DNA of 52,949 bases from Polyangiaceae bacterium (GTDB taxonomy: Bacteria; Myxococcota_A; Polyangia; Polyangiales; Polyangiaceae). The stretch lies in the NCBI GenBank assembly GCA_046351395.1, contig JAXLYP010000017.1, positions 193,508 to 246,456 of the forward strand, in the 5' to 3' direction. A program made the translations under genes and the position numbers. Every line of letters starts with the position of its first letter. Position 1 is the stretch's first letter. The notes below the pieces were generated by a model, which saw only the letters and a list, made by a program, of their open reading frames with translations, was not told where the DNA came from and ran no database searches. Positions 6,860 to 24,616 of this stretch are shown here, one piece after another.

Positions 6860-7703
6860 GCTCGGTCGCGACGCGCGTGTGGAGCTCGAGCACGGTGAAC
6901 CAATCGATGAGCTCGATGCGGAGCGCGCTCACGGCCGACGCGGCCCGCGCCGTGTGCGCGCGGGGGACCTCCGCGAGCGCATCGAGGAACCCCATGTCCG
7001 TCCCCGCTCCGACGGTCGCGCGCTCGCCGCGCGCGGTCTCGCACTCGACGAGCCCCGCGGTGACGCGGATCCAGTGGTTCGCGACATCTCCCGCGCTCCA
7101 GAGGACGTCGCCTCGCTGAAACCGCACGTCCGTGGACGCGCTCGCGATCTCCGCGAGGCCCTCCACGTTCGCGCGCGCGATGGGCGATCTCCGGAGCTGG
7201 ATGACCCGCTCCACGACCGTCAGCTCCTCGTCCCGAAACGTGCCGTGCTCCGGCGGATCGGAGCGATTGGGCAATGGCCCGCGCTCCGCGAGGAGGTCCC
7301 GCGCGAGGCCCCGCAGCACGAAGCGCTGGAGCGCGAAATCCCGTTGGAGCGCGATCCGGACCGCGTCTCCGGGGATCTCGAGCGCGAGCGTCCGTGCCTC
7401 CGTCGTCGCGCTCAGGTGATCGCGCTCCGTGAGGAGCGCGGTGAACCCGAGCGCGCGCTGGCTCTCCACGCGGCCGACCAGGGTGCCTTCGTGCTCCACG
7501 CGCACGCTCCCCTCGAGCACGTAGAGCACGGACGTGATCGGATCGGTCGCGCGCCAGATCACCGCGCGCGGCCGAAACCGCCGGTAGCGGGAGCGCTCCG
7601 CCATGAGCAGGAGAGTGTCCACGCTGACCGATCGAAGATCGGGCATCGAGCCGAGGAGGCGGGCGCGCGCCTCGACGCTCGCGAGCTCGGGCTCAGCTTG
7701 CAT
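6822..7703 (-). CDS. tandem cyclic-nucleotide-binding (CAP effector) domain protein
   Basis: Two cNMP-binding-like domains (RYRRFRPRAVIWRATDPITSVLYVLEGSVRVE...). Start overlaps the stop of the upstream TLC gene by 11 nt. Confidence 0.65.
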   Translation of the reverse strand: MQAEPELASVEARARLLGSMPDLRSVSVDTLLLMAERSRYRRFRPRAVIWRATDPITSVLYVLEGSVRVEHEGTLVGRVESQRALGFTALLTERDHLSATTEARTLALEIPGDAVRIALQRDFALQRFVLRGLARDLLAERGPLPNRSDPPEHGTFRDEELTVVERVIQLRRSPIARANVEGLAEIASASTDVRFQRGDVLWSAGDVANHWIRVTAGLVECETARGERATVGAGTDMGFLDALAEVPRAHTARAASAVSALRIELIDWFTVLELHTRVATELTAHLARGLRGD

Positions 7704-10515
7704 GCGGAGTGTCTCGTGGTGCAGAAGGGAACAGCGACGTCGAGGACGGAATCGAGGCTCGGCGCGTCACCTCCGGCGCCTCGGGTTCGGCCGCGCGATC
7801 GGGAGCTCCAGCGAGGAGGGCGCGGGCGCGCGAGAAGTCGGTCACGTCCGGCTCCTCCCTACAGAGCTCCTCGATCCGCGGGAGCTGACTCGTCATCCCG
7901 AGCTCCGCCGCGTGATAGGCAGCGAACTTGCGGAGGATCGCGCTCGAGCTCCCCAGCATCTGCGCGATCGCCGTCTCGTAGTCGAGATCCACGGATGCAT
8001 GGAACTCCTTCCCGCGCGTGCGTCGCTCGACGTCGTCGACGTCATCGACGAGCCCGATGACGGCGTCGCGCAGCGGATTCTTGAGGACGATGTGGATGAG
8101 CTCGACGGCGGTCGCGCGGTGCTCCTTCCCGCCCCGCTCGATGCTCGTGAAGATCGCGTCGATCTCCTCGTTCGGGTTGAGCAGCGCCAGCAGCCGGAAC
8201 ACGCGACCCACCATGTGTCGCTGCTTGTCTCGCAGCAAATCCACGAGCAGGCCGTGCCCGACCGTCGCTCGGCGTGGGTCCTCCTCCCGCCCGCGCCGGA
8301 GCGCGACGAACCGATCGAAGGACCGGTAGGCGCGGGCGACCGTGCGCTGGATCTCCTCCCCGAGGAGGCGCTCGTCGAGGCGCGTCTCGGGCCGCGCGAC
8401 GACGATCTGTCCGAGCGCGAGGATCGAGCGATACCGCACCATCCCATCGGGCTCCTGTCCGAGGTTCGCGAGCAGGATCTCGGGCGCCTCGGGCGAGTCG
8501 ATGTCCGCGAAGAGGCTCGGCACGAGCCTCCGCACCGCCCGCGGGCGATCCCGATCGCGGAGCGCGCGGACGATCGCGCCCGCGCCCGCGGGGCCCGCGG
8601 CGCTCAGCGCGAGGCGGACGTCCGCGCCCACCTGACTGTCTGCGAGCAGGTCGACCAGGGTGTTCGCGGACGTCTCGGTCGCGAGCCCGCCGAGCGCCGC
8701 GATCGCCGCGCGGCGGACGTCGAGCTCGCGCGCGCGCGTGAGCTCGACGATCTCGGGCTCGAAGCGGGTCGCCTTGCGCCAGCCGACGACCTCGGCCAGG
8801 AGGCGCCGGCTCTCCACGCTGCCCTCCGAGACGATCCGCCCGAGCTCGTGGTGAGCCTCTTCCGCCTCCATCATGGAGAACGCAGCCATCGTCGTGAGGA
8901 TCGCCGCGCGGATGTCCGGCGAGGTCTCCCGCGCGAGCTGCTCTCTCCACCGCGTCGCGTCCGGCGCGAGCACCGCGCGAGCGGCCATCGCCTCGGCGCG
9001 GACGCGGATGGAGGGGTGGCGATCCAAGTGGGTGAGCGCGTGGAGCGCGACCTTCCGACCGCGCACGCCGAAGATCCGGAGCGCGGTCACGACGACGGTC
9101 TCCGACGGGTGATACAGGATGAGCCCCGGGATGACGTGGGCCTTCCCCTCCCGATCCAAGATCCGTAGCGAAGACACGACCGTGCTCTCCGCTTCGCTCT
9201 CGAGCGACTCGAGGAGCGACTCGAGGGAGGCCATGTCGAGCCGCATGAGCGCGCCCGCGAGCCGCCTCCGACCGGACGCGAGGGCGTCCTTGAAGAGCTG
9301 CGCGTAGTCGCCTCGGAGCCATGTCGCGAGGACGACCGCGCCCGCGGCCGTGACGACGAGGAGGACGGCGAGCCATCGCGGTGGCAGCTCGGTCGCCACC
9401 CCGACGAGGATGACGACCGAGCCCACCATCTGGGCGCCCCGTTGACCGAGCGCGTCCATGAAGCTCTTGGCGACCGTCCGCGGACCGTCCTCGAGGGGCA
9501 CGAGCAGGAGCTCCGCGGCCGTGCGGTGCACGCTGAAGCGCATGCTGCCGTCCACGGCCTTCGTGATCACGGCGGGCGCGAGCGTGCCCGTGATCGCGAC
9601 GCCGAGGCCCCCGGCGACGAGCCCGAACGGCAGCACCGCGAACACCAACGGGAGAGGCAAGCGCGCGACGAGCGATCGGACCGCGAACACCTGAACGCAG
9701 ACCGAGATCACGTTCAGGACCACGTTCACGCGGCCGAACACGCGCGCGAGCTGGTCGTGCGCGAAGTGGGCGGTGATCTGCGACTTGAAGATGAAGTCCG
9801 AGATCGTGACGGCGATCGTGATGAGGCCGCAGACCGCGACCACCCGTCGGATGTAGGGGTGGCGAAGGGCCGTGCCGAGGCGCTCGCCGAGCGTCCCGTC
9901 GCGCCCGTCGTGCTCGCCGTCGCGCGCGCGTTCGTCGAGGCCGCCGCTCGAGAACAGCATCGGCATCCAGGCGGCGCCGAAGAACAGCACGCCCGCGAAG
10001 AGGGAGAGGTTCGCCGGCGCGACCCACGTGACGAGCCCGACCGCGCCGCTGCCGAGGATCGCGCCGAGCCCGGCTCCGAGCCCGATCATCCCGTAGAGCC
10101 GTTTGGCCTGGCGAATCGAGAAGAGCCCTCCAACGAGGGACCAGAAATGGATGAGGACAATCGTCGAGAGGACGCCCGACCAGATGTAGAAGACATAGAG
10201 CCCGACCTCACCCAGGCTCGGCAGCGCACGGGAGAGCGCGATCGTCCCGAGCGACGAGGCGACCGTCCAGCCGATCAGCACGCGCCGCGGCGTCGTGCGC
10301 CGGAACACGGCTTGGGCGCGCGTCGCGACGAGCGTCGCGGCGGCGAGCGCGACGTACACCCAAGGGAGTCGGCTCGTCGGGATGTGGGCGAGGAACATCG
10401 CGTCGCGCGTCGCCTCGAGGATGCTGTGGCCGGCCACGAAGACGAACAGGAAGACAAAGGCGGTGATCGCATCCCGCCGCTCCGATCGCCGCACCGGGAA
10501 GAGCCGCCGCAGCAC
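7693..10515 (-). CDS. TLC/Npt-family nucleotide transporter (ATP/ADP-translocase family) fused to C-terminal HEAT/PBS-lyase-like repeats
   Basis: N-terminal ~430 aa polytopic with TLC-like start (FLFVFVAGHSILEATRDAMF...); C-terminal ~500 aa alpha-helical repeats. GTG start 1 nt after the upstream gene's stop. Confidence 0.75.
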   Translation of the reverse strand: MLRRLFPVRRSERRDAITAFVFLFVFVAGHSILEATRDAMFLAHIPTSRLPWVYVALAAATLVATRAQAVFRRTTPRRVLIGWTVASSLGTIALSRALPSLGEVGLYVFYIWSGVLSTIVLIHFWSLVGGLFSIRQAKRLYGMIGLGAGLGAILGSGAVGLVTWVAPANLSLFAGVLFFGAAWMPMLFSSGGLDERARDGEHDGRDGTLGERLGTALRHPYIRRVVAVCGLITIAVTISDFIFKSQITAHFAHDQLARVFGRVNVVLNVISVCVQVFAVRSLVARLPLPLVFAVLPFGLVAGGLGVAITGTLAPAVITKAVDGSMRFSVHRTAAELLLVPLEDGPRTVAKSFMDALGQRGAQMVGSVVILVGVATELPPRWLAVLLVVTAAGAVVLATWLRGDYAQLFKDALASGRRRLAGALMRLDMASLESLLESLESEAESTVVSSLRILDREGKAHVIPGLILYHPSETVVVTALRIFGVRGRKVALHALTHLDRHPSIRVRAEAMAARAVLAPDATRWREQLARETSPDIRAAILTTMAAFSMMEAEEAHHELGRIVSEGSVESRRLLAEVVGWRKATRFEPEIVELTRARELDVRRAAIAALGGLATETSANTLVDLLADSQVGADVRLALSAAGPAGAGAIVRALRDRDRPRAVRRLVPSLFADIDSPEAPEILLANLGQEPDGMVRYRSILALGQIVVARPETRLDERLLGEEIQRTVARAYRSFDRFVALRRGREEDPRRATVGHGLLVDLLRDKQRHMVGRVFRLLALLNPNEEIDAIFTSIERGGKEHRATAVELIHIVLKNPLRDAVIGLVDDVDDVERRTRGKEFHASVDLDYETAIAQMLGSSSAILRKFAAYHAAELGMTSQLPRIEELCREEPDVTDFSRARALLAGAPDRAAEPEAPEVTRRASIPSSTSLFPSAPRDTPHAS

Positions 10516-10516
10516 G

Positions 10517-11965
10517 TCAGAACCCCGTCGTCCCGCCGACGAGGAACCGGACGCTCTCGGGCTCGCCGCCCTCCGCGAACGGCTTCGTCCCGAAGCCCAA
10601 GAGGAGGTTCAACGCGTGGTCACGGTGATTCGGCGATTGGAACCCCCCGACGAACGAGAACCGGAGTCGCTCGAGTTCGAAGTCCTCGAAGTCGCGCCCG
10701 AACACGTTCCCCACCTGCGCGCGGAGCGTGGCGTCGACGAACGACCAGATGGGCCAGGTGTACGTGACGCTCGCCGCGGCGGACGTCTCGCCGAGGAGGC
10801 GCCCGGGGGTGAAGCCGAGGAGGGGCTCGTCGTCGGGCACGCGATCGGTCCGACCGCTCCCGATGAGCTCCGTGAACGGCACGCGCGCCGTGCTCGAGAA
10901 GGGCTCGATCGCGCGGACGTCCACGAGGAGCCCGAGCACGCGCCGCGTCCCCGTGACGTCGATGAACCCGCCCACGGACCCGCCCACCTGCGCCCACTCG
11001 ACGTGCGACCCGACGTCGCTCCCGAGCTCGGCGTGCGCGTCGAGCCCGACCCCGGAGCCCGGCCCTGGGCGCGGCTGTCGCGAGTCGAGCACGACGCGCC
11101 CACCGACCTTCACCGCGGTGTATCCGGCGAACCCGTCGGGGAGGGGATAGAGCCCTCGAGCGACCGCGCGGGAGATGGGCAGCGTAGGACACTCGTGTGG
11201 CCATACCGGGCAGCTCTCGTCGGAGAACGAGTGGTGCCGGACGACGGCCCAAGCCTCCACGAAATTGGCCTTTCGCGGCTCCACGTGGGTCCGAATGCCG
11301 CCTCCGACCGAGCGCTGCTCGAACCTCGACTCGTCCGCGTAGCGAGACCGGTACCCCACACCGTAGAACAGGTAGTCGGCGCGGACGACCCCGTCCGCCT
11401 CGAGCTGCAGGTTGGAGCGCACGCGGTGAGAGCCGTCGGGTTCGACCTCGACGTCGAGCGGGACGCGGTCGACCACGCGAGCTGCGAAGTACCTCTCGCC
11501 CCCCGTCGCGACCGACGCGCGGAGTTGATTGTCTGTCACGAGGAAGTCGTCGTAGAAGTGGTAGAGGCCGACGCTCGGACGAAAACCGAACTCGTAGAAC
11601 GCCGTCGGGATGAGGCCCACGTTGTGGTGAGGGCCGAACGTGAAGAAGTCGGTCACCTTCGCCACGATGCCCTCGCGGTCGATCACCGTGGTGATCGCGC
11701 CGAGGGGGCGCCGGATGACGTAGTCCGAGACCACGTAGAGCGGCGCGAAGAGGACGCGGGGGATCCAGAGCGCGCCCTCCGCCGCGGTCGTCTCGCGCGG
11801 TCTGCCCTCGTAGTCCTGCGGTGGGCGCTTCTCTCCGGGCGGCCGGGATGGATCCTCGGGGAGCACGGCGGGGTGCTCGGGGACGTCCCCCCGCGCCGGG
11901 GGCGCCGCCGCGAGGGCAGCGCCGAACGCGAAGACCATGGCACCGAGCGCCTTGGGCGAGTTCAT
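10517..11965 (-). CDS. secreted beta-barrel-like protein with C-terminal Phe (paralog of 23156..24616)
   Basis: Signal peptide MNSPKALGAMVFAFGAALAAAPPARG. Ends ...LRFSFVGGFQSPNHRDHALNLLLGFGTKPFAEGGEPESVRFLVGGTTGF*, nearly identical to the paralog's C-terminus. ATGA overlap with the upstream lipoprotein gene. Confidence 0.7.
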   Translation of the reverse strand: MNSPKALGAMVFAFGAALAAAPPARGDVPEHPAVLPEDPSRPPGEKRPPQDYEGRPRETTAAEGALWIPRVLFAPLYVVSDYVIRRPLGAITTVIDREGIVAKVTDFFTFGPHHNVGLIPTAFYEFGFRPSVGLYHFYDDFLVTDNQLRASVATGGERYFAARVVDRVPLDVEVEPDGSHRVRSNLQLEADGVVRADYLFYGVGYRSRYADESRFEQRSVGGGIRTHVEPRKANFVEAWAVVRHHSFSDESCPVWPHECPTLPISRAVARGLYPLPDGFAGYTAVKVGGRVVLDSRQPRPGPGSGVGLDAHAELGSDVGSHVEWAQVGGSVGGFIDVTGTRRVLGLLVDVRAIEPFSSTARVPFTELIGSGRTDRVPDDEPLLGFTPGRLLGETSAAASVTYTWPIWSFVDATLRAQVGNVFGRDFEDFELERLRFSFVGGFQSPNHRDHALNLLLGFGTKPFAEGGEPESVRFLVGGTTGF

Positions 11966-13779
11966 TGGAGGGCCGCGCCCGGCTCGTCGGGCCTCTGGAT
12001 GGCGACCATCTTGAAGTGGGAGGACGCCCCGAGATCGTACAAATGAACGCGCAGCGGACCCCGCGCCGCGCCGTTCGAGACGTCGAGCACCGCGTATCGA
12101 AGGGGGTGATCGTCGGGCAGCGAGCGGTCGTCCACGACGCGCGGTAGATCCACGCAGACCGTCGCATCGTCGCCGAGGCTGACGGGGAGGGCCTTTCGCT
12201 GGTCGAGGTCGAGCCCCGTCCGGAGCTCGGCGGCGTACGTGAACCGCGTCCTCGGCCAGGTGGTCGTCTTGTGCGCGAGATCGGTCGCGCAGACGCGGTC
12301 GCCCTCGACGGTCACGTCCGCCAGCGGGGATACGACGCTGAAATACCGCGTGAGGATCTCGTCCCTTCGTTGGATGAGTGTCCGCGTGAGGAACTCCGTC
12401 GCGCGAGGGTCCGTGTAGTCGCCGACCCGCACCGCGGCCGCGATGTTCGCGTCGGTGAAGCGCGACAGGATGCGCGCCGCCCACGCGCCGTCCTCCTCCG
12501 TCATGCGAGCGAACGCGGGGTTCGGGTAGCCGCCCTTCCAGTCCTCGGGCACGAAGTCCGGCCTGAAATAGTCGAACATCGGGAGCTCGGTGTTCGCGAC
12601 GGGCCGGTCCCATGGGCGCTCGAACGAGCCGAGCGTCAGGAGGTCGATCGCCACGTCCTCCGGATCGAAGTAGTAGCTGTGGTTGATCCTCCGGTTCCAG
12701 CTCTCCCATTGCCAATGGCTGCCAAAGCAGTCCCCGAGGTCGATGTACCAATGTGTCGTCCGCCCCGGAGAGGAGTCCTTCGACTCGGGGTCCACGGCGT
12801 CCCAGGTGGTCATCGTGTTTTGCTCGCGCGAATCGAAGTGCCCGAGCCACGCGGCCATGAGCCGCGCTCCGCGGAGATCCCTTCGGTCCTCGTGAGGGAT
12901 GATGTCGTTGGGATCGTCTTCTCGCGTCTCCTCGTACCGGAAGGGGCCGATCGCGCGTCCTGGGAGCCACCGCGACGCCACCATTCGTACGAGCCCACCT
13001 CGCTTCTGTGCGCTGTCGAGGATCGCCTGGAGCTTCCCGTCGTCGAACGGCATTTTGGTGCCCGTATTGTCTGCGTAATCGAGCCCGGGCTCGAGCCTGA
13101 GCCAGGACTTGTCGACGTAGACAATCGTGTCGCACGCGGTCCACCAGCCCGCGGCGTGGTAGAGCCTGGACGCGATGGATGTCGCCCCGGTCGCCTTCTC
13201 GCCTTCGCCCTCGGCGTCTGCCTTCAGCATGAACTTGCCGACGCCCTCGATCTCGACCCGAAAGCCCGGGTTCGCGCCGTTCGCCTTGCCCATGTCGACG
13301 CGCCAGGCGCCCGGTTCGTGCGGGGCCGTGGCGATCGTCTTGTGGCCGCAGCTCCCGCGCGTGATCTCCTCGTCGGTCATCGGCCTCACGCCGATGCGGT
13401 TCGTGAACCAGCTCGAGTCGGGCACCTCGTCGACCGCGTTCACGTTCCGCGCAGCGAAGCCGACGTCCGCGGCGAAGAACTTCACGATGGGCCGGAAGAT
13501 GGTCTTGTCGGCGACGTCCCATAGGAACGGGGACTCGTACTCTTCGGGCCGACAGAGTTGCTTCTTCGCGTCCTTCGGATCGGGGCGACACGGCACTCGG
13601 ACCGCCCGCAGATCCTCGTCGATCCAGACCGGGTCGCGGAGCGGGAACCGCCGGATGCCACCGCACCCCGCGACCGAGGTCGCCGCGCCGCTCGCCAGCG
13701 CCGCGCCGATCACGACTCGGCATGCGGCTCGCAGAATCTTTACGGCCCCCGCCTCGCGATGAGCCCACCGAATCGCCAT
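11962..13779 (-). CDS. secreted lipoprotein with atypical kinase-like motifs (paralog of the split 18997/21043 gene)
   Basis: Signal and lipobox (...ALASGAATSVAGCGG). Motifs LMAAWLGHFDSREQNTM (HxDxxxxN-like) and WYIDLGDCFGS (DxG) align with VLTALIGHQDDIGVNFY and LLSVDNGLAFG of the paralog. ATG at 13779 overlaps the divergent PAP2 start. Confidence 0.6.
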   Translation of the reverse strand: MAIRWAHREAGAVKILRAACRVVIGAALASGAATSVAGCGGIRRFPLRDPVWIDEDLRAVRVPCRPDPKDAKKQLCRPEEYESPFLWDVADKTIFRPIVKFFAADVGFAARNVNAVDEVPDSSWFTNRIGVRPMTDEEITRGSCGHKTIATAPHEPGAWRVDMGKANGANPGFRVEIEGVGKFMLKADAEGEGEKATGATSIASRLYHAAGWWTACDTIVYVDKSWLRLEPGLDYADNTGTKMPFDDGKLQAILDSAQKRGGLVRMVASRWLPGRAIGPFRYEETREDDPNDIIPHEDRRDLRGARLMAAWLGHFDSREQNTMTTWDAVDPESKDSSPGRTTHWYIDLGDCFGSHWQWESWNRRINHSYYFDPEDVAIDLLTLGSFERPWDRPVANTELPMFDYFRPDFVPEDWKGGYPNPAFARMTEEDGAWAARILSRFTDANIAAAVRVGDYTDPRATEFLTRTLIQRRDEILTRYFSVVSPLADVTVEGDRVCATDLAHKTTTWPRTRFTYAAELRTGLDLDQRKALPVSLGDDATVCVDLPRVVDDRSLPDDHPLRYAVLDVSNGAARGPLRVHLYDLGASSHFKMVAIQRPDEPGAALQ

Positions 13780-14649
13780 CCGATCGCCGTGCGCGCGGCC
13801 GAGCTCCTCGGCTCGAGTCCGCTGCTCGTGCTCGCGGGCGTGGGCGTGTTCTCGATCGGGCTCGTCCTCGTTCTCGTCGTCCTCGCGAGGTGGATGAGCG
13901 CGCGGGGCCTCGGCTGGCGGAAGGCCCTCTTTCGACGCGCCGCGCGCGCTGTCGGCGCCGCCCCGAGCGCGCGCGCGAGGCTCTCGCGGCTCGTCCGGCT
14001 CGAGTACGAGCTCGTCCACCTGGGACTTGGGCTCGCGCTCCTCGCCGGGCTGGTCGTGTTCGTGGCGCTCGCGGTCTCCGTCGTCGACGACGGCGCAGTC
14101 GCGGCGTTCGACGAGTCGCTCGCGCGTGCGGTCCACCGATCGACGCCGCCCGAGCTCGTGCGCGTCATGCTCGTCGCGACCTCGCTCGGCGGCGGTGAGG
14201 CCGTCCTCGTCGTCGCGGTGGTCGTCGCGGTGGGGCTCCTGGTGCGGCGGCGATGGCACCTCGCCATCGGCTGGATCACGGCGGAGGCGGGCGCGGGCCT
14301 CTTCAACGCGCTCCTCAAGTCGCTCTATCGGCGCGCGCGTCCCACGCTCGACGATCCGTTCACGAGCGCATCCGGGTGGAGCTTCCCGAGCGGACACTCC
14401 ATGGGGACGATCGTCACCGCTGGGATGCTCGCTTATGTGTTCTCCCGGTTCTACCCGCCGGGGTGGCCGCGCTTCGTGGCCGTCTTCCTCGCGACGCTGT
14501 GGACGCTCGTCATTGGGTTCAGCCGCGTGTGCCTCGGCGTCCACTACGCGAGCGACGTGCTCGGAGGGTTCGCCGCGGGCGCGGTGTGGCTCGTCGTTTG
14601 CGTTTCGGGCCTCGAGGTGGCGTTGCGCCCCAATCGCTCGGCCGTTTAG
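13759..14649 (+). CDS. PAP2-family integral membrane phosphatase
   Basis: KSLYRRARPTLDD ... SFPSGHSMG ... SRVCLGVHYASDVLGG (PAP2 KxxxxxxRP / PSGH / SRxxxxxHxxxD motifs); several TM helices. Confidence 0.65.
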   Translation: MSPPNRHPIAVRAAELLGSSPLLVLAGVGVFSIGLVLVLVVLARWMSARGLGWRKALFRRAARAVGAAPSARARLSRLVRLEYELVHLGLGLALLAGLVVFVALAVSVVDDGAVAAFDESLARAVHRSTPPELVRVMLVATSLGGGEAVLVVAVVVAVGLLVRRRWHLAIGWITAEAGAGLFNALLKSLYRRARPTLDDPFTSASGWSFPSGHSMGTIVTAGMLAYVFSRFYPPGWPRFVAVFLATLWTLVIGFSRVCLGVHYASDVLGGFAAGAVWLVVCVSGLEVALRPNRSAV

Positions 14650-15790: not shown

Positions 15791-15793
15791 GCG

Positions 15794-16690
15794 ATGGGGT
15801 CCTCGAGAGAACGCCGATGGAGCGTCGCCGCGCGATCGATCTTCGTGGTCGTGATCGCCGTTCTCACCCGAGAGGCGCGCGGTCAAGTGCTCGACCTCCC
15901 GGACGCGACGACGAACCCGACCGCGCCACCGCGGGACGTGGATCAGAAGCTCCCCTATTGGGAGAGAGGAGAGATCCGGCCATTCACGTCGGCGGTGTTC
16001 GACGTCGGCGGGTTCTTCGTGCGCCCCGAGTTGAACGTCGGCTACGGGCAGCCGCACTTCAACTGGATCGGCGCGGAGATCTTCAGCAAGCTCACGCTCG
16101 GCGGCGTGACGCTCGGAGCGGGCGTCCACGGTCAGATCCCGAACGTCGACGCGCGCCTCGGCGTGCGGTCGTTCCGGTCGGCGGATCAACGCCTGCTCCA
16201 GCGCAAGAACGTGTATCGGGAGTCGGACCCGACGATCCTCGATCAGCCCGCCTCGGCCTACGACAGCGTCGACGCGGATCTCGCGGTGAACGTCCGCGCG
16301 CTCGGAGGATCCGTCAGCTTGGAGACGCGCGCGCTCGCGCTCTTCCAGGTCCCCGACGGATATGACGTCTTCGAGGACGTGTTCCGCGTCGTGGTCCGAC
16401 CGCCGCTCGTCTGGCAGGCGAAATTGACGTATGTCGTCTTCGCGGGCTGGGACGATCGCCTCGCGCTCGGGTTCACGACGGAGCTCCTCGGCGCTCCAGC
16501 GAGAGACAACCTCGTCTTCCGCGTCGGCCCGGTGCTCACCGTCGCGTTGACGGAGCACCTCCAGGCGATCGGCGGCGGCGCCTTCGCGATCCTGTACCAC
16601 GACGATCTCGGCCTCAGCGGGTCGGATCTCGGGCAGATCGGTCTGCGCTACCGTTGGGCGTCGGGAGAGCCTTACCCCGACTTCCCGTGA
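15794..16690 (+). CDS. secreted hypothetical protein (beta-rich)
   Basis: Signal peptide (RWSVAARSIFVVVIAVLTREARGQ); high GC3; no recognisable domain. Confidence 0.5.
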   Translation: MGSSRERRWSVAARSIFVVVIAVLTREARGQVLDLPDATTNPTAPPRDVDQKLPYWERGEIRPFTSAVFDVGGFFVRPELNVGYGQPHFNWIGAEIFSKLTLGGVTLGAGVHGQIPNVDARLGVRSFRSADQRLLQRKNVYRESDPTILDQPASAYDSVDADLAVNVRALGGSVSLETRALALFQVPDGYDVFEDVFRVVVRPPLVWQAKLTYVVFAGWDDRLALGFTTELLGAPARDNLVFRVGPVLTVALTEHLQAIGGGAFAILYHDDLGLSGSDLGQIGLRYRWASGEPYPDFP

Positions 16691-16721: not shown

Positions 16722-17639
16722 TCAGAACTGCCCGCCCCAGGAGAGCTGCACGGGCGGCCGCGCGGTGACGAGCGGCGCGGACGCCGCCGCGCTCGTGTTC
16801 GGGCCGTCGACGGTCTGCGTGTAGTGCAGGGCGAGGGGGACCGCGAGGCCTACCCCGTACCCGAAGAGGAAGCCGCTGATCGCGTCGCTCATCCAGTGCC
16901 GATCGGAGATGACGCGCATCCCGGCGATGGTGACGGCGAGGGCCGTCGAGCCGACGCACGCGACGACGTCGGGCGCGCCGCCCCCGTAGAGCGGGACATA
17001 GGCGTGGTGGGCGCACGTCAGCCCCGCGCCGACCGCGCTCATCGTCGCGTGACCGCTGAACCAGCTCGCGTTGACGCCGAAGGAGCCACAGTCGTACGCC
17101 CAGCCTTTGTCTGTTTGGCATCCGATCCCGGCTGGGCGCTCCCGCGCGGCGAGCCGGTGGTTCACGCGCATGACGAGATACGCGATCCCGTAGGCCTCGA
17201 GGTTCATCGCCGTCAGCTGCTGGAGCATATCGAGGTTCTCGTCGATCGCCGGGACGAGGACTCCATCGATGAGGACGGGGTAGGCGGCGCTCACGGCGAG
17301 CAAGACGTCGCTCGCGATCTGAATGCCGCGTCGATCCTTAAGCCGCGGCATCGCGACGGCGTCGCGGGCGATCTCGTCGAACAGGATGGGCCCGATCCAC
17401 CGGGGCTCGATGGGCTGTTCGGTCCCGAACTCGATGATGCCCGCGCCGGTGATCGACAGGGCGGTGAGCGTGTACTCGCCCCACACGACGCGCGGGTGGG
17501 ACTCGTCCCAGTGCAGGCGGTGCTCGTCCTTGGCCTGCGCCGCTGCGCGCTCGCATGGCGCGAAAGCTGCGAGCGCCGCGCCCAGAAGGATCGCGTGTTG
17601 GTGTCTGTGCAGCGAGGAGTTCACCAGGGGATCCGTCAC
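16722..17639 (-). CDS. PAP2-family membrane phosphatase (paralog of 14774..15790)
   Basis: SWFSGHATMSAVGAGLTCAHHAY and RVISDRHWMSDAISGFLFGYG; signal peptide; ends in Phe. Confidence 0.65.
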   Translation of the reverse strand: MTDPLVNSSLHRHQHAILLGAALAAFAPCERAAAQAKDEHRLHWDESHPRVVWGEYTLTALSITGAGIIEFGTEQPIEPRWIGPILFDEIARDAVAMPRLKDRRGIQIASDVLLAVSAAYPVLIDGVLVPAIDENLDMLQQLTAMNLEAYGIAYLVMRVNHRLAARERPAGIGCQTDKGWAYDCGSFGVNASWFSGHATMSAVGAGLTCAHHAYVPLYGGGAPDVVACVGSTALAVTIAGMRVISDRHWMSDAISGFLFGYGVGLAVPLALHYTQTVDGPNTSAAASAPLVTARPPVQLSWGGQF

Positions 17640-18956: not shown

Positions 18957-18996
18957 CGACGCTCCACGGGCACACAGCGTGCTTGGTTGGTATTCG

Positions 18997-19599
18997 ATGC
19001 ACGTCCTCCGCCATGCGGTGATGGGTGCGAGCATGGCGCTCGCCGGCTGCGCCTCGTCGCCCATGCCCGCGTGGCCCGTGTCGACCCCTGCGGAGCTCTG
19101 TCAGGACCCGACCCTCGGCCCCTCCGACTTCTGCATGCCCGCCGCGCGCATCGAGGTGTGGCTCCGCGAGGGCGACTTTCGGATCACGAACGTGGCGTTC
19201 TCGAGCTCGGGCGTGACGCGCCCCTACAAACTCAGGCTCGAGCTCGCGTCGGGGCTGACCATCAACGCGAAGTTCAAGCGCGCGCCGGACGATCTCGAGG
19301 CGTTCAACAACAGCCCGCGGCGCGAGCTCGCCGCCTATGAGATCCAGAAGCTGTTCTTGGACCCGGACGACTACGTCGTCCCTCCGACGGTGCTCGCCTG
19401 CATCCCGGCGCGCACCGAGCTGATGCCGGAGCTCGAGCCGCACCCGAGGGCGACGTGCGCGATCGGCGTACTCGCGTATTGGGTGGAGGGCCTCACGGAC
19501 CAGGGGGTCGTCGACCCCGCGCGGTGGGCGGCGGACGCGGGGTACCGCGACGTACCCGTTCACCCGTCGGACGGGATCAGCGTGGGGACTTCCAGTTGA
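18997..19599 (+). CDS. lipoprotein, N-terminal portion of a kinase-like protein interrupted by an IS66 remnant
   Basis: Lipobox MGASMALAGC; ...YKLRLELASGLTINAKFKRAPDD...ELAAYEIQKLF... resembles an N-lobe. Same reading frame as 21043..21549. Confidence 0.5.
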   Translation: MHVLRHAVMGASMALAGCASSPMPAWPVSTPAELCQDPTLGPSDFCMPAARIEVWLREGDFRITNVAFSSSGVTRPYKLRLELASGLTINAKFKRAPDDLEAFNNSPRRELAAYEIQKLFLDPDDYVVPPTVLACIPARTELMPELEPHPRATCAIGVLAYWVEGLTDQGVVDPARWAADAGYRDVPVHPSDGISVGTSS

Positions 19600-19669
19600 G
19601 CTGGGTCGCAAGCTGCAAGGAGGAAGCCGAGGATCGACCTTCGCTGGAGGCGAAGCGAATGGATCACGG

Positions 19670-20990
19670 TCATGACTCGCTGGGCGAACAGGCATCCTCG
19701 CTCGCTCTGGGAGCCGTAAGAGACCTTGCGCCAAAGCACGAACGGCGCAGCGCGCGCTCGGCATGATTATCAGGGATCCACTTCAGGCTCGAAGGCGAAC
19801 GTGAGGAGGGCGGCCTTGTGTTCGAGTATGTCGAGGCAGGAGCCGGAGACGCCGCGCAGGCGCAGCCCCGCGCCGCGTTCGAGGAGTCCCTCGAACGCCA
19901 TCTGCGCTGGTCGCCATCCTCTGGTACTTGGCGCGTGAGGGTGCCGTCCCGCACCTTGTGCCAGGCGGCAGCACAAGGTGAGAGAGCAGAGAAGGTCCTC
20001 CCCGAGTTGGCGTCCCGCGTCCTTGCGTTCGGAGAAGGCGACGAACTTCCTGATGAGGTGCGCCCAGCAGATCTGCCGCCGCCCTGATGGCCCAGAAGCC
20101 GAACTGCGAGCCTCGGTCCGTCACCAAGGATCCCGGAGAGGGCCCATGAGCGCGGCGATTGTCCGCGACAAGCATCGGCGGTGACGAAGAACACAGCGAC
20201 GGACCGCGTTGCGATCGTCCAGAGCGCGGCATACAGGCCGGCGACTCGCCAGGTGCTTCCGTCCACGTGCTTCACGGGGTGCGCGCGGACGTAGCAGGCC
20301 GCGGCATCCACCGGGGCAGCGATAGCGTCGTTGATCCGCTCCTCGGCCTCGCTGAGGGCGCCGAGCGAGACTGGGATGCCGAAGATCTCGGAGAGGTACT
20401 CCCGGCAACTGTCGCGCCACTGTCCGCGCGCCGAGGAACAGCCGATGAACGCGAGCAGCCGGGGACCGAACATGTGGCTCGGGACGCTGCCGGCAGACTC
20501 GCCCACGTCGTCTTCCCGCAGTCCTTGCAACAGGCCCCGCCCATGACGATCTCGTGAACGTCCGGCTTGATCCTTCGGGGATGTCGACGACCTGATGCAG
20601 GCGCGGGTCGATCCCCTCCGCCGCGAGATTCCGTCCGCCGCATCCTCGACATCTCTTCGGCGCCAGCTTCGTCCGACGGGTCACCTTCTCGGGCGGGAAC
20701 AGCACGCGGGTGTTCGGCTTGTGTCCGGGCTGGCCGCCGCGACTTCGACCGGTCGGCTTCTTCTCGGGTCGAGTCCCAGGTAGATCGGTCGACGGAGGCT
20801 TGCCCGACTCCTCGAGTTCTGCCCCAGCTGCTGCTCGAGGTCGGCGACTCGCACCTTGAGCTGCGCGATCTCCGCGTCCTGCCCGCGATGATCGGTGTCG
20901 CGCTCCGCGACCATGGCAAGCAGCGCCGCGACCTGGGCTTCCAACTTCGCCAGACGCTTGCCGACCGAGGTCACCGACCCACTCGATCAT
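19670..20990 (-). mobile_element. IS66-family transposase (TnpC-like) remnant, frameshifted and truncated
   Basis: Three frames carry successive TnpC segments: leucine zipper (LAKLEAQVAALLAMVAE), GGQPGHKPNTR...CRGCGG...RLHQVVDIPE, and ...YVRAHPVKHVDGSTWRV. No tnpA/tnpB and no intact IRs. Flanked at 21021-21046 by an AT-rich repeat gtatgatcacatatgatcatgtatgg. Confidence 0.6.
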
Positions 20991-21042
20991 GCGGCGATCC
21001 TCGTGTCGATCCCCGATCGCGTATGATCACATATGATCATGT

Positions 21043-21549
21043 ATGGCTGCTCGACCCGGTGAACGGGTACACCGCGACAACCTCGGGAACTTGAACGTGC
21101 TGACGGCGCTCATCGGTCACCAAGACGACATTGGAGTGAACTTCTACCGGTCGAAGGACGCGGCGCGCCCGCGGCTATTGTCTGTCGACAATGGGCTCGC
21201 GTTCGGCGCGATGGGAGACAATCCCATTCGGTTCTTCAGCAGCGCATGGAGCGACGTGCGAGTCCCGCTCCTGCCTTCGAAGACGGTGGACAGGCTCGGC
21301 TCGGTCGACCGGGCGCGCCTCGAGCCCCTCGGCGTGGTCGCGCAGATGCGCCTCGAGGGCGGCGCGTTCCATCCCATCCCACGGACGCCGACGCTCGATC
21401 CGAACCAGGCCGTGCGCTGGAACGGGGACGACGTCCAGCTCGGGCTCACCGCCGAGGAGATCACGGACGTCGATGTCCGGCTGGCACGGCTCCTCGGCGC
21501 GATCGACTCCGAGGAGGTCCAGCGCGGTCGTCCCCGCGAATCGAAGTGA
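21043..21549 (+). CDS. C-terminal kinase-like fragment (continuation of 18997..19599)
   Basis: NVLTALIGHQDDIGVNFYRS (HxDxxxxN) and LLSVDNGLAFG (DxG), homologous to the same motifs in 11962..13779. High GC3. Confidence 0.5.
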   Translation: MAARPGERVHRDNLGNLNVLTALIGHQDDIGVNFYRSKDAARPRLLSVDNGLAFGAMGDNPIRFFSSAWSDVRVPLLPSKTVDRLGSVDRARLEPLGVVAQMRLEGGAFHPIPRTPTLDPNQAVRWNGDDVQLGLTAEEITDVDVRLARLLGAIDSEEVQRGRPRESK

Positions 21550-21719: not shown

Positions 21720-23159
21720 ATGAGCAACGCGCCGCGACGATCGTCGAGTCCACCCGATCCCAAAGAGGTCGCCCGGCGCTCCCTCGTCGAACGAGCGCTC
21801 GGGGTGATCACCGAGGTGAGGGCAGGCGAGGGGGGGACCGCACTCCTCATGACGCTCAATGTCTTTCTGCTGCTCACCGCATACTATCTCATCAAGCCGG
21901 TCCGTGAGGGCCTCATCGGGAGCGTGAAGCACGGCCCCGAGTACAAGAGCTACATGGGGGGCGCGGTCGCGCTCGCGCTCTTCGCCATCGTCCCGCTCTA
22001 CGGGATGCTCGCCGCGAGGCTGAAGCGGAACGTGCTCATCTCGAGCGTCTCGCTCTTCTTCGTCGCGAACCTCGTCGGCTTCTGGATGCTCGGCCGCCTC
22101 CCCTGGGTCGCGACCGAGACGGGGGCGACGGTCTATGCGCTCGCGTTCCTCCTCTGGGTGGGCGTGTTCAACCTCATGATCGTCGCGCAGTTCTGGGCGT
22201 TCGCCGCCGACGTGTACACCGACGAGCAGGGGAAGCGGTTGTTCGCGCTCATCGGTCTGGGCGCGTCCGTCGGCGCGGTGATGGGGAGCCTGGTCATGAA
22301 CCGCGTCGTGACCGAGCTCGGCACGGAGCACATGATGCTCGTCGCCGCCGTGACGCTCGCGCTCGCGACGGCGGTGACGCTGCTCATCCATCGGCGCGAG
22401 TCCCGGCGGCCGCGGGCGCCGGACCCGGAGAAGGAGCGGAAACAGCGCGAGGAGAAGGAGGCGAAGCAGAGCAGTCAGGGCGCGTTCTCGCTCGTGCTCC
22501 ACGACCGGTATTTGCTGCTCATCGCGGCGTTCACCGTGCTCTTCCAGATCGTGAACACCAATGGCGAGTTCATCCTCTCGAGCCTCGTGGCGGACGCGTC
22601 GCGCGCCGTGACCGAGACGCGAGAGGAGCAGAAGGCGTGGATCGCCTCGTACTACGGGAGCTTCTTTCTCTGGGTGAACATCGCGGGCGTGGCGATCCAG
22701 ACGTTCCTCGTCTCGCGGATCGTGAAGTGGGGCGGGCTCAAGGTCGGCCTCCTCATCTTCCCCGTCGTCGCGCTCATCAGCGAGGCGGCCATCGCGGTCG
22801 TCCCGGTGCTCCTCCTCGTTCGGATCGGCAAGACGGCGGAGAACTCGCTCGACTATTCGCTCAACAACACGCTCCGCAACGCCCTCTGGCTCCCCACGAC
22901 GACGCGCGCGAAGTACGTCGCGAAGCAGGCGATCGACAGCTTCGTGTCGCGCGTGGGCGACATGGGGTCGGCGCTCGCGATCTTCATCCTCATCGACGCG
23001 CTCCACTTGACCGTGCGAGCGGTCGCGACGCTCAACGCGTGCCTCGTCCTCGCTTGGATCTACGTGTCGATCGAGATCGTCCGCGAGAACGGCAAGCTCA
23101 CCGAGGACGCGAAGGGCAAAGCGCTTTCACGGCTGGAGGCGGCGGGGGCGAGCGCGTGA
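21720..23159 (+). CDS. TLC/Npt-family nucleotide transporter (ATP/ADP-translocase family)
   Basis: ALLMTLNVFLLLTAYYLIKPVREGLIG... 12-TM-type profile; paralog of the N-terminal domain of 7693..10515. Confidence 0.75.
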   Translation: MSNAPRRSSSPPDPKEVARRSLVERALGVITEVRAGEGGTALLMTLNVFLLLTAYYLIKPVREGLIGSVKHGPEYKSYMGGAVALALFAIVPLYGMLAARLKRNVLISSVSLFFVANLVGFWMLGRLPWVATETGATVYALAFLLWVGVFNLMIVAQFWAFAADVYTDEQGKRLFALIGLGASVGAVMGSLVMNRVVTELGTEHMMLVAAVTLALATAVTLLIHRRESRRPRAPDPEKERKQREEKEAKQSSQGAFSLVLHDRYLLLIAAFTVLFQIVNTNGEFILSSLVADASRAVTETREEQKAWIASYYGSFFLWVNIAGVAIQTFLVSRIVKWGGLKVGLLIFPVVALISEAAIAVVPVLLLVRIGKTAENSLDYSLNNTLRNALWLPTTTRAKYVAKQAIDSFVSRVGDMGSALAIFILIDALHLTVRAVATLNACLVLAWIYVSIEIVRENGKLTEDAKGKALSRLEAAGASA

Positions 23160-24616
23160 GGACACCGGGGGCGAGCCTCACCCTCGTCCTCGTGTGCGCG
23201 CTCGCGGGCAGGTCCGCGACGGCGCGCGCGGACGGCGCGAGCCCCCCCGCGCCGCCGCCGCACCCGTCGACGCTCCCAGAGGACGCGCGCCGCGCCCCGG
23301 GGGAGAAGCGCCCGCTGCAAGAGTACGAGGGGCGCCCGCGCGAGACCACGACCGCGGAGGACGCCCTCTGGGTCCCACGCGTCCTCCTGTTCCCCGCGTA
23401 CCTCGTCTCGGAGTTCGTGGTTCGGAGGCCGCTCGGCGCGATCGACACCGCGCTCGAGACGGGCTCGACGGGCGGCCGGCTCATCGACGTGTTCACGTTC
23501 GGACCGCGCCACAACGCCGGTTTGGTCCCGACCGCGTTCTACGACTTCGGGTTCCGTCCGAGCGCGGGGCTCTACCTCTTCTACGACGACTTCCTCGCGA
23601 CAGACAATCAGCTCCGCGCGGCGTTCGCGACCGGCGGAGAGCGGTATTTCAGGGCGCGGGTGGTGGACCGAATCCCCCTTCACGTCGTCCGGGGCGAGGA
23701 CGGCGAGCACGAGGTCAGGGCGAACCTCCAGCTCGAGCTCGCTGGGCTCGCGCGGCCCGACCATCGGTTCTACGGCCTCGGCTTCGGATCGAAGAGCGCG
23801 CACGGATCGGAGTTCGAACAGAGATCGGTCGGGGGAGGAGTCCGCTTCCGCGCGGAGCCCTGGAGGTGGTCCTTCCTCGAGTCTTGGGTGCTCTATCGGC
23901 ACCACGACTTCTCGGATGGGGGGTGCGACGCACGCCCGTCGGACTGTGATCACCCGCCGATCTCATGGGCCATCGAGAGGGGCTGGTACGCGGCGCCAGT
24001 GGGCTTCGACGGATACCAGACAATCAAAGTCGGCGCGCGAGCGGTGGTGGACACGCGCCCGGATCGACCCGCGCCGGGATCGGGCGCGGGCTCGGAGATC
24101 CGCTTGGAGCTGACGAACGACACGCGCGGCGGGGAGTGGGCGGAGGGGGGCGCCACCGTGGGCGGCTTCCTCGATCTCACCGGGACGCGGAGGGTCCTCG
24201 AGCTGACGCTCGACGTGCGCGCCCTCGAGCCGCTCTCGTCGGGAACGGCGATCCCGTTCACCGAGCTCGTCGGCGCGGCCCGCATGGATGGAATCCTCGA
24301 GGACGGCGTGCTGCGCGGGTTCATCGCGGGTCGCCTGCTCGGAGAGAGCTCCGTGGTGGCCTCGCTCGGGTATTCGTGGCCCATCTGGGCCTGGGTCGAC
24401 GCCACTCTGCAAGCCCAAGTCGGCAACGTGTTCGCGCACCGGCTCGCCGATTTCGCGCCGGAGCGGCTGCGGTTCTCGTTCGTCGGCGGCTTTCGATCAC
24501 CGAATCACCGGGACCACGCGCTCAACGTGCTGCTGGGGTTCGGGACCGAGCCGTTCGCCGACGGCGGCTCGCCGGAGAGCCTGCGGTTCCTCATCGGGGG
24601 CACGACCGGGTTCTAA
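23156..24616 (+). CDS. secreted beta-barrel-like protein with C-terminal Phe (paralog of 10517..11965)
   Basis: GTG start overlapping the transporter stop (GTGA); signal peptide; C-terminus ...LRFSFVGGFRSPNHRDHALNVLLGFGTEPFADGGSPESLRFLIGGTTGF*. Confidence 0.7.
   Translation: MRTPGASLTLVLVCALAGRSATARADGASPPAPPPHPSTLPEDARRAPGEKRPLQEYEGRPRETTTAEDALWVPRVLLFPAYLVSEFVVRRPLGAIDTALETGSTGGRLIDVFTFGPRHNAGLVPTAFYDFGFRPSAGLYLFYDDFLATDNQLRAAFATGGERYFRARVVDRIPLHVVRGEDGEHEVRANLQLELAGLARPDHRFYGLGFGSKSAHGSEFEQRSVGGGVRFRAEPWRWSFLESWVLYRHHDFSDGGCDARPSDCDHPPISWAIERGWYAAPVGFDGYQTIKVGARAVVDTRPDRPAPGSGAGSEIRLELTNDTRGGEWAEGGATVGGFLDLTGTRRVLELTLDVRALEPLSSGTAIPFTELVGAARMDGILEDGVLRGFIAGRLLGESSVVASLGYSWPIWAWVDATLQAQVGNVFAHRLADFAPERLRFSFVGGFRSPNHRDHALNVLLGFGTEPFADGGSPESLRFLIGGTTGF

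Follow-up and report, generated by a model that had tools for sequence, protein, structure and literature searches.

A gene cluster that is conserved across Polyangia combines a lipoprotein with a predicted atypical kinase domain (lipo1), an Omp85-type barrel, a short TLC carrier, an NTT-HEAT carrier with a cyclic-nucleotide-binding protein (cNBD), and PAP2 phosphatases in one larger unit. It was analysed in a stretch of 52,949 nucleotides (the window) from a soil myxobacterium of the family Polyangiaceae, the genome of which is a MAG. We assign a probability of about 0.4 to the reading that the region represents a single envelope system, which is conserved in Polyangia and has undergone rearrangement and partial duplication in this genome, and in which an envelope kinase is fed by nucleotide carriers. 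The gene neighbourhood suggests a phosphorylation system outside of the cytoplasm that possesses its own nucleotide supply. No description of the cluster was found in the searchable literature on NTT structures, ATP in the periplasm, Fam20-like kinases of bacteria, and translocases of myxobacteria.

Gene organization and conservation of the cluster

A sequence-only reading of the same DNA had described two paralogous three-gene modules, each consisting of a lipoprotein, a TLC-family carrier, and a barrel-like protein. All of its open reading frames were recovered, with their coordinates, when the sequence was re-read. The proposed paralogy holds for the barrels (62% identity), but neither for the carriers, which are 23% identical and differ in architecture, nor for the lipoproteins, which are not significantly similar. 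The gene junctions are as described: on the minus strand, lipo1 (11962..13779) and barrel1 (10517..11965) share an ATGA overlap, and a 1-nt spacer separates barrel1 from TLC1 (7693..10515); on the plus strand, TLC2 (21720..23159) and barrel2 (23156..24616) share a GTGA overlap. In addition, the start of the gene for a cyclic-nucleotide-binding protein of 293 residues (6822..7703, minus strand; Pfam cNMP_binding, E = 1e-19) overlaps the end of TLC1 by 11 nt. The overlaps of stop and start codons are compatible with co-translation. An Rfam scan of the whole window detected no RNA families. The 468-aa gene located 3' of barrel2 (24654-26060) was considered as a lipo1-type partner and rejected; its product is unrelated and of low complexity, and no signal peptide is evident in its sequence.

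Gene neighbourhoods were compared for the 55 lipo1 loci that possess at least 5 kb on each flank. A barrel gene is present in 42 of these loci (in 39 within 700 nt of lipo1), a TLC gene in 43, and a PAP2 gene in 20; these counts are inflated because 16 of the 55 loci stem from closely related Sorangium genomes. The barrel is almost always the direct neighbour of lipo1; about a fifth of the loci (12/55) lack a TLC gene within 10 kb. Unbiased clustering of the genes from 83 loci yielded TLC (58/83) and barrel (54/83) as the top neighbours, and the cNMP-binding gene co-occurs in 23 of the 83 loci. The conservation of the neighbourhood of TLC homologues, a point raised by the sequence-only reading, is strong with respect to the linkage of lipo1-type kinase, barrel, and TLC. 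This linkage was found in Polyangiaceae, Sorangium, Labilithrix, Haliangiales, and Pendulispora, with at least six different gene orders among the lipo1 loci. In Pendulispora rubella, all seven genes follow one another in the same orientation (PAP2-TLC-Omp85-lipo1-PAP2-NTT-HEAT-cNBD). The loci that were seeded with TLC2 contain partner genes in three of three cases, with lipo1-TLC-barrel among the gene orders.

Genes for alpha/beta-hydrolases/lipases, GDSL-lipases, and PAP2 enzymes recur near lipo1. Two other gene types were not assigned to the system. Ser/Thr kinase genes lie close to lipo1 in 33 of the 83 loci; as these genomes encode kinases of this type in great number, the genes were regarded as likely background. 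DUF2252 genes occur in 11 loci; their products contain an APH-like motif and lack a signal peptide, and the window has no such gene.

It is very improbable that there is no system and that the genes became neighbours by chance or through local genome history in this MAG. The Ser/Thr kinase genes as probable background, and the position of lipo2 beside TLC2 and barrel2, which appears to be a local accident (see below), would agree with such an explanation. However, the linkage of lipo1, barrel, and TLC outlasts the rearrangements of gene order across the Polyangia groups. Moreover, according to a rough estimate, the few TLC genes of a genome of 10-14 Mb would be expected within 10 kb by chance in about 1% of cases, compared to 70-78% observed. 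For the lipo1 core, a chance neighbourhood is already largely refuted.

Two lipoproteins with predicted kinase folds

lipo1 comprises 605 residues; its start codon is uncertain and may be located at 13779, at 13743, or at the position chosen in the public annotation, which results in 583 residues. A longer reading frame reaching 14259 was discarded; its upstream portion resembles the antisense of the gene for PAP2a (13759..14649, plus strand; Pfam PAP2, E = 4e-21), which is transcribed divergently from lipo1. Both lipo1 and lipo2 had been regarded as lipoproteins, in agreement with a lipobox Cys in each, as read directly from the sequence. The lipobox of lipo1 ends in SVAGC, and Cys39 is invariant in 52 lipo1 sequences, as are six further Cys residues. 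The lipobox of lipo2 ends in ALAGC, and the consensus of its family contains GC at this site.

K186, H314, D316, N321, D347, and D350 are likewise invariant across the 52 lipo1 sequences; roles in the catalytic Asp/Asn loop, as metal-binding Asp of the DxG motif, and as ATP-binding Lys were assigned here, and likewise in the lipo2 family, by motif position only. The central domain is predicted to adopt the bilobal, kinase-like fold of the atypical kinase group comprising Fam20, PI4KII, CotH, CtkA, and HipA, and a C-terminal Ig/FN3-like sandwich is predicted as well. Given this fold and the invariant catalytic-type residues, lipo1 is a predicted kinase. Searches of lipo1 against Pfam, NCBIfam, and PDB sequences yielded no family match; the PDB search gave chance hits to viral capsids only. 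The surmise that both lipoproteins possess a kinase-like fold with conserved catalytic Asp and Asn agrees well with the predicted folds, and the H/D/N residues and the DxG motif are invariant. The fold matches of the lipoproteins include the lipid kinases PI4KIIα and MavQ. Members of the atypical kinase superfamily may also be pseudokinases or catalyze other nucleotide-dependent reactions.

What had been read as two coding pieces of lipo2 is a single gene that is split by a putative IS66-type element of 1519 bp. The 5' part (18997..19551, plus strand) shows 71% identity to an intact homologue (P0241) over residues 3-190 in a tblastn comparison, and the 3' part (21079..21549, plus strand) contains the catalytic loop (GHQDDIGVN) and a DNG motif; the restored protein comprises 341 residues. 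The inserted element (19552..21070, strand not assigned), probably an IS66-family derivative, carries perfect terminal inverted repeats of 13 bp. Its 8-bp target site, ACCGCGAC, is duplicated and borders the element on both sides (19544-19551 and 21071-21078). Its remnants of DDE_Tnp_IS66 and DUF6444 are weak (E = 0.01), frameshifted, and located on the minus strand, and its length of 1.5 kb is short for the IS66 family.

In the lipo2 family, D206, D227, N228, and G229 are invariant, and K95, E113, and N211 are conserved to at least 90%. Pfam PI3_PI4_kinase was matched by 12 of 43 lipo2 relatives, with a best E-value of 1.4e-7; the lipo2 of the window itself matched no curated kinase family, and a search of the lipo2 profile against the PDB gave nothing significant. 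Judging from the predicted fold, lipo2 is a second Fam20/PI4KII-like kinase lipoprotein and a predicted kinase, which is by sequence unrelated to lipo1. A paralogous relationship was rejected, with BLASTP E-values of 0.3-0.5 and an hhalign probability of 4%. The two families have in common just the catalytic-loop and DxG motifs, where they align in register; the LxAxxGH block attributed to both is present with exact spacing in lipo2, and in lipo1 the spacing differs by one residue. lipo2 lies beside TLC2 and barrel2 in the present genome only, where it is inactivated by the insertion. Four neighbourhoods of lipo2 homologues were inspected and contain no TLC or Omp85 gene, and a search of 80 lipo1 loci for lipo2 gave no match; lipo2 was therefore not retained as a member of the system.

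Carriers, barrels, and phosphatases

Both carriers exceed the cut-off of 21 bits for Pfam TLC (PF03219), TLC2 with 60.0 and TLC1 with 32.3 bits, and the closest solved structures are NTT ADP/ATP carriers. For TLC2, 9j3n was matched best (E = 4.5e-10), followed by 9j3j (E = 5.6e-5), and the next hit was an MFS protein that is unrelated (E = 0.085). Their previous assignment to the TLC family is thus confirmed, with the NTT ATP/ADP carriers as nearest characterised relatives, and the NTT family motifs FWxFA...KRxFxLxGxGA and K..AID are kept. The Pfam TLC match on TLC1 spans residues 106-158 only, and MFS_1 scores as high as TLC (61 bits on TLC2). With TIGR00769, the model for NTP/NDP exchangers, 55.3 and 21.8 bits were obtained, far under the cut-off of 387, so that the carriers are relatives of the characterised exchangers and not equivalogs. 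Because of these low scores and the equal match to MFS_1, the carrier substrate could be other than ATP.

TLC1 and TLC2 are distant relatives: at 23% identity, TLC1 (940 residues) consists of an N-terminal TLC/MFS membrane domain and a C-terminal HEAT-repeat domain (HEAT_2, E = 5.9e-12), whereas TLC2 is a short TLC/NTT-family carrier of 479 residues, predicted to reside in the inner membrane. An architecture in which an NTT is fused to HEAT, with a cNMP-binding gene next downstream, has already been described (PMC5381601), and TLC1 with its overlapping cNMP-binding gene fits it. NTT-HEAT-type genes were also reported there from free-living Deltaproteobacteria (Major, Embley & Williams 2017; PMC5381601).

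These carriers might serve nucleotide scavenging, the second option of the sequence-only reading, which we consider quite unlikely. In this case, nucleotides set free by lysed prey or decaying material would enter through the barrel and be captured or modified by the lipoprotein, PAP2 enzymes would trim phosphates, and the TLC carriers would import the nucleotides into the cytoplasm. Characterised NTTs import nucleotides, as in intracellular parasites (PMC5381601), Polyangia comprise predators and saprophytes, and phosphatase genes adjoin the carriers. However, Omp85 barrels have no known role as channels for solutes (PMC11358297). A mere binding protein does not need a kinase fold of the Fam20/PI4KII/CtkA type with invariant catalytic residues. 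PAP2 enzymes are mainly lipid-phosphate phosphatases, and dephosphorylation of nucleotides would defeat uptake of the NTT type. Furthermore, the hosts are free-living and have large genomes; Sorangium contigs reach 12-16 Mb, and genomes of this size are expected to encode full nucleotide synthesis.

barrel1 (482 residues) and barrel2 (486 residues) are true paralogues, with 62% identity over 449 residues and homology along the whole length. The near-identical C-terminus of about 60 residues noticed before is indeed related; the homology is, however, not confined to it. Both proteins possess a signal peptide, and their last residue is Phe, as had been noted. Judging from their homologues, they probably belong to the Omp85 family: homologues that are 34-44% identical (E = 1e-68 to 1e-109) contain PF01103, and the Pfam Omp85 domain was found in 19 of 39 members of the barrel family (best E = 9.6e-11). 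The window barrels themselves gave no Pfam match, and barrel2 matched NCBIfam Omp85_fam at E = 0.012. With the barrel profile, nanobodies were found among PDB sequences, and BamA reached E = 0.15 only. No POTRA domain was detected in the barrels by Pfam or NCBIfam, and roughly 100 residues seem to lie ahead of the barrel domain. The loop-6 lid-lock motif, which is defined for noNterm Omp85 proteins as (L/M)RG(F/W/Y) (PMC11358297), is LRGF in barrel2 and MRGF in the family consensus; barrel1 reads LLGF and has thus lost the lid-lock Arg. On the basis of these features, the barrels are probably POTRA-less (noNterm) members of the Omp85 superfamily, with a predicted location in the outer membrane.

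The genes for PAP2b (14831..15790; Pfam PAP2, E = 8e-13) and a secreted beta-rich protein without Pfam match (15794..16690) follow each other on the plus strand, and PAP2c (16722..17639; Pfam PAP2, E = 3e-9) is encoded on the minus strand. PAP2b is found directly 5' of lipo1 in many related loci. The gene for the beta-rich protein, a homologue of which (L013) has a signal peptide, occurs in 16 of 83 loci and each time after PAP2b. PAP2c-type genes are located 3' of lipo1 in several loci and also flank the Pendulispora operon. The active site of PAP2 enzymes is typically situated on the outer face of the membrane. We know of no described pairing that resembles this recurrent combination of PAP2b, secreted beta-rich protein, and lipo1.

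Since Omp85 proteins are known insertases and translocases, the barrel may indicate surface display of lipo1, beyond the reach of periplasmic ATP. A system of surface display or lipid remodelling without ATP export is rather unlikely, albeit to be taken seriously. The barrel would then insert lipo1 or flip it to the cell surface, where the kinase-fold protein would act on external or outer-leaflet substrates or be a mere binding protein or pseudokinase; the TLC-like MFS proteins would carry another solute, e.g. a lipid-derived or phosphorylated compound handled by the PAP2 enzymes. Every Omp85/TpsB member characterised so far serves the assembly or translocation of proteins. In Leptospira, lipoprotein genes lie on the flanks of noNterm Omp85 genes, for which a function as lipoprotein translocases has been suggested (PMC11358297). 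The barrel as tightest neighbour of lipo1, the recurrent PAP2, alpha/beta-hydrolase/lipase, and GDSL-lipase genes, PI4KIIα and MavQ among the fold matches, and the generic MFS_1 match of the carriers point in the same direction. On the other hand, Omp85 barrels of the noNterm kind are closed by a dome (PMC11358297), and the characterised members of the TLC family, to which the nearest relatives of the carriers belong, all move nucleotides or NAD (PMC5381601). The invariant kinase-type residues argue for a nucleotide-using enzyme, which would still require a nucleotide source.

Proposed mechanism and comparison with known systems

From the folds, conserved residues, export signals, protein families, and synteny, we infer the kinase activity and its target, the transported substrate and its direction, and the role of the barrel as follows. 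NTT-type carriers would exchange cytoplasmic ATP against periplasmic ADP, the HEAT/cNBD version under cyclic-nucleotide control, and this exchange would feed the envelope-anchored kinase lipo1. The Omp85 barrel may dock, insert, or surface-expose the lipoprotein, and the PAP2 enzymes may reverse or process the phosphorylation of some lipid, glycan, or protein. In this specific form, with Polyangia NTT-type carriers (one of them HEAT/cyclic-nucleotide-gated) exporting ATP for a lipoprotein kinase that has a POTRA-less Omp85 partner and is opposed by PAP2, the proposal is possible, though on balance doubtful. ATP release into a periplasm enclosed by an outer membrane with porins would come at a high cost, and a precedent in bacteria was not found in the searchable literature. 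Both functional ideas of the sequence-only reading, ATP supply to the periplasm for an extracytoplasmic kinase or nucleotide scavenging, would be compatible with all of the observations.

The periplasm is taught as being free of ATP; processes in the envelope draw their energy from the inner membrane or depend on phosphate donors that are linked to lipids. An exported kinase-fold lipoprotein encoded beside relatives of ATP/ADP carriers offers a concrete and testable candidate for an exception. If the proposal is correct, the cluster would correspond, in bacteria, to the kinase system of the eukaryotic secretory pathway (Fam20C plus luminal ATP/ADP exchanger), and the textbook view of a periplasm without ATP-driven chemistry would have an exception. 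If ATP export is wrong, the cluster remains an undescribed envelope system in a group noted for its complex outer-membrane biology. The NTT and NTT-HEAT genes of free-living bacteria, which were catalogued in 2017, are thereby placed in a functional context for the first time, and noNterm Omp85 proteins gain a context as well. Furthermore, a predicted fold can be given for a protein family that lacked annotation and has at least about 2,000 members, and kinases that are Fam20/PI4KII-like by predicted fold occur as bacterial lipoproteins.

Compared to the known NTT/TLC proteins (PF03219, TIGR00769), both window carriers pass the Pfam TLC threshold; they are, however, very divergent, with about 20% identity, and lie on branches without a characterised member. 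The accessible part of PMC5381601 does not mention a link of NTTs to a kinase-fold lipoprotein, Omp85, or PAP2. The noNterm Omp85 proteins of Leptospira (LIC12252/12254/12258) have an Omp85 barrel domain, as is probable for the window barrels too, resemble the latter in a short periplasmic N-terminus and a lipoprotein gene next to their own, and share the lid-lock motif with barrel2 and its family consensus. In contrast, the window barrels form a separate, highly divergent branch below the Pfam threshold, contain a conserved N-terminal segment of about 60 residues (KRxxPDYDGR...ALWxPRVLLFPLY), and have a kinase-fold protein as partner lipoprotein; in barrel1, the lid-lock Arg is gone. Three window genes agree with the PAP2 lipid-phosphate phosphatases (PgpB, LpxE/LpxF, LpxT, UppP-like) in the PAP2 domain and the PSGH / SRxxxxxHxxxD motifs.

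The D-x4-N catalytic loop and the DxG metal-binding motif of atypical kinases (Fam20B/C, PI4K type IIα, CotH, H. pylori CtkA, HipA, actin-fragmin kinase) are likewise present in the lipoproteins. Unlike these kinases, lipo1 and lipo2 are bacterial lipoproteins; lipo1 is about 10% identical to any of them, has no Pfam match, and contains additional N-terminal and Ig-like C-terminal domains. CtkA is a secreted kinase that is active outside of the cytoplasm. Fam20 is extracytoplasmic too, in the secretory pathway, as is proposed for lipo1, and the ATP of the eukaryotic lumen arrives through a dedicated carrier.

Genes and junctions in the window

The window has a G+C content of about 70%, and its genes correspond to locus tags U0414_27325 to 27390 of the public annotation, as established by exact protein matches. 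In the sequence-only reading, two paralogous modules had been proposed, each consisting of a kinase-like lipoprotein, a TLC carrier and a beta-barrel-like protein. All open reading frames claimed there are present, and a codon-position G+C score supports their status as genes. The junctions were likewise found as described: an ATGA overlap joins lipo1 (11962–13779) and barrel1 (10517–11965), a spacer of 1 nt separates barrel1 from TLC1 (7693–10515; all minus strand), and a GTGA overlap joins TLC2 (21720–23159) and barrel2 (23156–24616; plus strand). Absent from that reading were a gene for a cNMP-binding protein (cNBD; 6822–7703), which shares 11 nt with the end of TLC1, and the content of the space between the two modules. 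This space is occupied by three PAP2 phosphatase genes (PAP2a, 13759–14649, and PAP2b, 14831–15790, plus strand; PAP2c, 16722–17639, minus strand) and a gene for a secreted beta-rich protein (15794–16690, plus strand).

Further annotated genes encode a papain-family cysteine protease (5795–6859), VipB/TssC, a sheath protein of type VI secretion (30263–31615), and an AraC-type regulator with DUF6597 (47110–48243). The gene at 26076–27797 encodes a fusion of a Ser/Thr protein kinase and an FGE-sulfatase (formylglycine-generating-enzyme-like) domain whose N-terminus bears a zinc ribbon; it is preceded by a gene for a proline-rich, low-complexity protein of 468 aa (24654–26060). The sign of the G+C skew flips near 48 kb.

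Relationship and identity of the components

The proposed paralogy of the two modules holds only in part. Barrel1 and barrel2 are identical in 62% of 449 aligned residues and are therefore true paralogues. TLC1 and TLC2 share 23% identity (E 3e-15) and differ in their build: TLC1 comprises 940 aa including a C-terminal HEAT domain, TLC2 only 479 aa. Homology of lipo1 and lipo2 was undetectable by BLASTP (E 0.3–0.5), and aligning the profile of one family with that of the other yielded a probability of 4%, the in-register alignment being limited to the catalytic loop and the DxG stretch.

Both carriers score above the Pfam TLC threshold, and among solved structures NTT ADP/ATP carriers are closest to them (E 4.5e-10); both score far below the cut-off of the curated exchanger model TIGR00769. 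The only characterised relatives of these putative inner-membrane carriers are nucleotide movers. TLC1 and the adjoining cNBD gene constitute the NTT-HEAT (+cNBD) architecture, which Major et al. 2017 (PMC5381601) describe as widespread among free-living bacteria and as lacking a known function. TLC1 has a cyclic-nucleotide-sensing partner.

The two barrels fall below the Pfam threshold; PF01103 is matched by 19 of 39 relatives. Judged by sequence, the barrels appear to belong to a divergent branch of Omp85. Because they lack a POTRA domain, keep the (L/M)RGF lid-lock motif (in barrel2 and the family consensus) and both end in Phe, they are grouped with the "noNterm" Omp85 proteins. In barrel1, LLGF replaces this motif at the position of the loop-6 lid-lock Arg, and gating of the two barrels may differ. 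Either the barrel or the barrel-lipo1 pair appears to duplicate readily: the pair is repeated in tandem (barrel-lipo1-barrel-lipo1) at two loci (L071 and L082), and two tandem barrels follow lipo1 at a third (L010). In a metagenomic protein of 816 aa (P0219), a TLC domain is combined with barrel-family sequence; this is more likely a gene-calling artefact across an overlapping stop/start than a genuine fusion.

Lipo1 has no sequence match in Pfam, NCBIfam or PDB, and its family has at least 1,971 members, each of them called "hypothetical" wherever a source supplies a name. AlphaFold2 modelled lipo1 with confidence (pLDDT 88.5, pTM 0.88); in the model, the kinase domain is followed by a C-terminal Ig/FN3-like sandwich. 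Invariant in 52 sequences are K186, H314, D316, N321, D347 and D350; D316 and N321 belong to a D-x4-N loop, D347 and D350 to the motif DLGDCFG. The lipobox Cys39 and six more cysteines are also invariant, which fits a disulfide-bonded exported protein. Lipo1 is an exported lipoprotein in which a kinase fold goes together with invariant residues of the kinase type, and it is a candidate kinase.

Lipo2 (18997–19551 and 21079–21549) is one gene split by an element of 1519 bp at 19552–21070. The element (site 19544–21078) ends in perfect 13-bp inverted repeats, GTACCCGTTCACC, is bracketed by the 8-bp target duplication ACCGCGAC, and carries remnants of an IS66-type transposase with decayed frames. 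Its ends and the target duplication are intact despite this decay, which suggests that this presumed IS66-type derivative either inserted fairly recently or is non-autonomous. Excision in silico restores an ORF of 341 aa that matches intact homologues of about 345 aa from end to end. Relatives of lipo2 had no TLC or Omp85 neighbour in the four contexts inspected and none was found at the best 80 lipo1 loci; the placement of lipo2 seems to be peculiar to this Polyangiaceae genome.

A conserved neighbourhood around lipo1

A scan for lipo1 relatives, with one genome per species, yielded 405 loci. Nearly all of the best 80 carry a Myxococcota label, mostly Polyangia, and include Polyangiaceae, Sorangium, Labilithrix, Haliangiales and Byssovorax; two are labelled just Proteobacteria or Pseudomonadota. 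Neighbours were counted at the 55 loci that have 5 kb or more on each side, a set that includes closely related genomes: any TLC gene occurs at 43 and the barrel at 42 (39 within 700 nt of lipo1), followed by PAP2 (20), a HEAT domain (17) and cNBD (12). Unbiased gene clustering of 83 loci gave the same top neighbours, the TLC family (58) and the barrel (54), then PAP2 (26) and cNBD (23). A search seeded with TLC2 added three metagenomic loci, all with partner genes and one ordered lipo1-TLC-barrel. In Pendulispora rubella, PAP2, short TLC, Omp85, lipo1, PAP2, NTT-HEAT and cNBD form one co-directional row.

When the 16 Sorangium genomes are counted as one, about 68–70% still remains in the 55-locus set. 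The genes display at least six different orders and orientations, which argues for selection rather than one inherited block. Chance is a very remote explanation, and we assign a probability of about 0.85 to a functional link between the genes. From this conservation, and with lipo2 unlinked in the contexts inspected, it follows that the genuine unit consists of lipo1, barrel, short TLC, NTT-HEAT/cNBD and PAP2. In the window this unit is split, a PAP2 island separating cNBD-NTT-HEAT-barrel1-lipo1 from TLC2-barrel2, and its barrel is present twice.

Several accessory genes were observed. The gene after PAP2b always encodes a secreted beta-rich protein of about 280–300 aa without family assignment, possibly a small outer-membrane barrel; the pair occupies 14831–16690 in the window and occurs also at L010 and L012–L022. 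One lineage has the pair immediately upstream of lipo1, in the same orientation. At 11 related loci (L013, 6857–8038, and 10 others), though not in the window, a DUF2252 protein is encoded between short TLC and PAP2b. It has an APH-like HxxGDxHxxN motif and no signal peptide, and could serve as a kinase-like accessory in the cytoplasm. Upstream of lipo1, L001 and L024–L040 (Sorangium) as well as L005 carry an alpha/beta-hydrolase/lipase gene, and Sorangium loci contain a GDSL-lipase gene downstream of the TLC gene; these genes add to the lipid-related flavour of the neighbourhood.

Proposed function and known systems

A tentative mechanism, to which we give somewhat less than even odds, is that the NTT-type carriers would export cytoplasmic ATP in exchange for ADP from the periplasm, thereby supplying the putative kinase lipo1, that the Omp85 barrel would dock, insert or expose the lipoprotein, and that the PAP2 enzymes would oppose or process phosphorylation. 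We lean towards a lipid as target, over a glycan or protein, because of the PI4KIIα-like folds, the PAP2 genes and the nearby lipases. The Omp85-type barrel is the constant neighbour of lipo1, and PAP2 phosphatases also belong to the unit; a surface-display or lipid-remodelling system whose carriers move another solute could account for both, and is unlikely given carriers related to nucleotide movers. Nucleotide scavenging would suit such carriers, and is less probable still for genes linked to an exported kinase-like lipoprotein.

Every component is related to, or a divergent member of, a known superfamily: NTT, noNterm Omp85, Fam20/PI4KII-like kinases and PAP2. Since neither the whole gene combination nor a bacterial exported kinase paired with nucleotide carriers was found in the searchable literature, the cluster is rated a new kind of system; what is established are its composition and conservation, and its function is a proposal. 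Already published are two of its sub-patterns: the combination of NTT-HEAT and cNBD, and the placement of a noNterm Omp85 gene beside one for a lipoprotein. The proposed mechanism may be likened to the eukaryotic secretory pathway, where Fam20-type kinases rely on ATP brought into the lumen.
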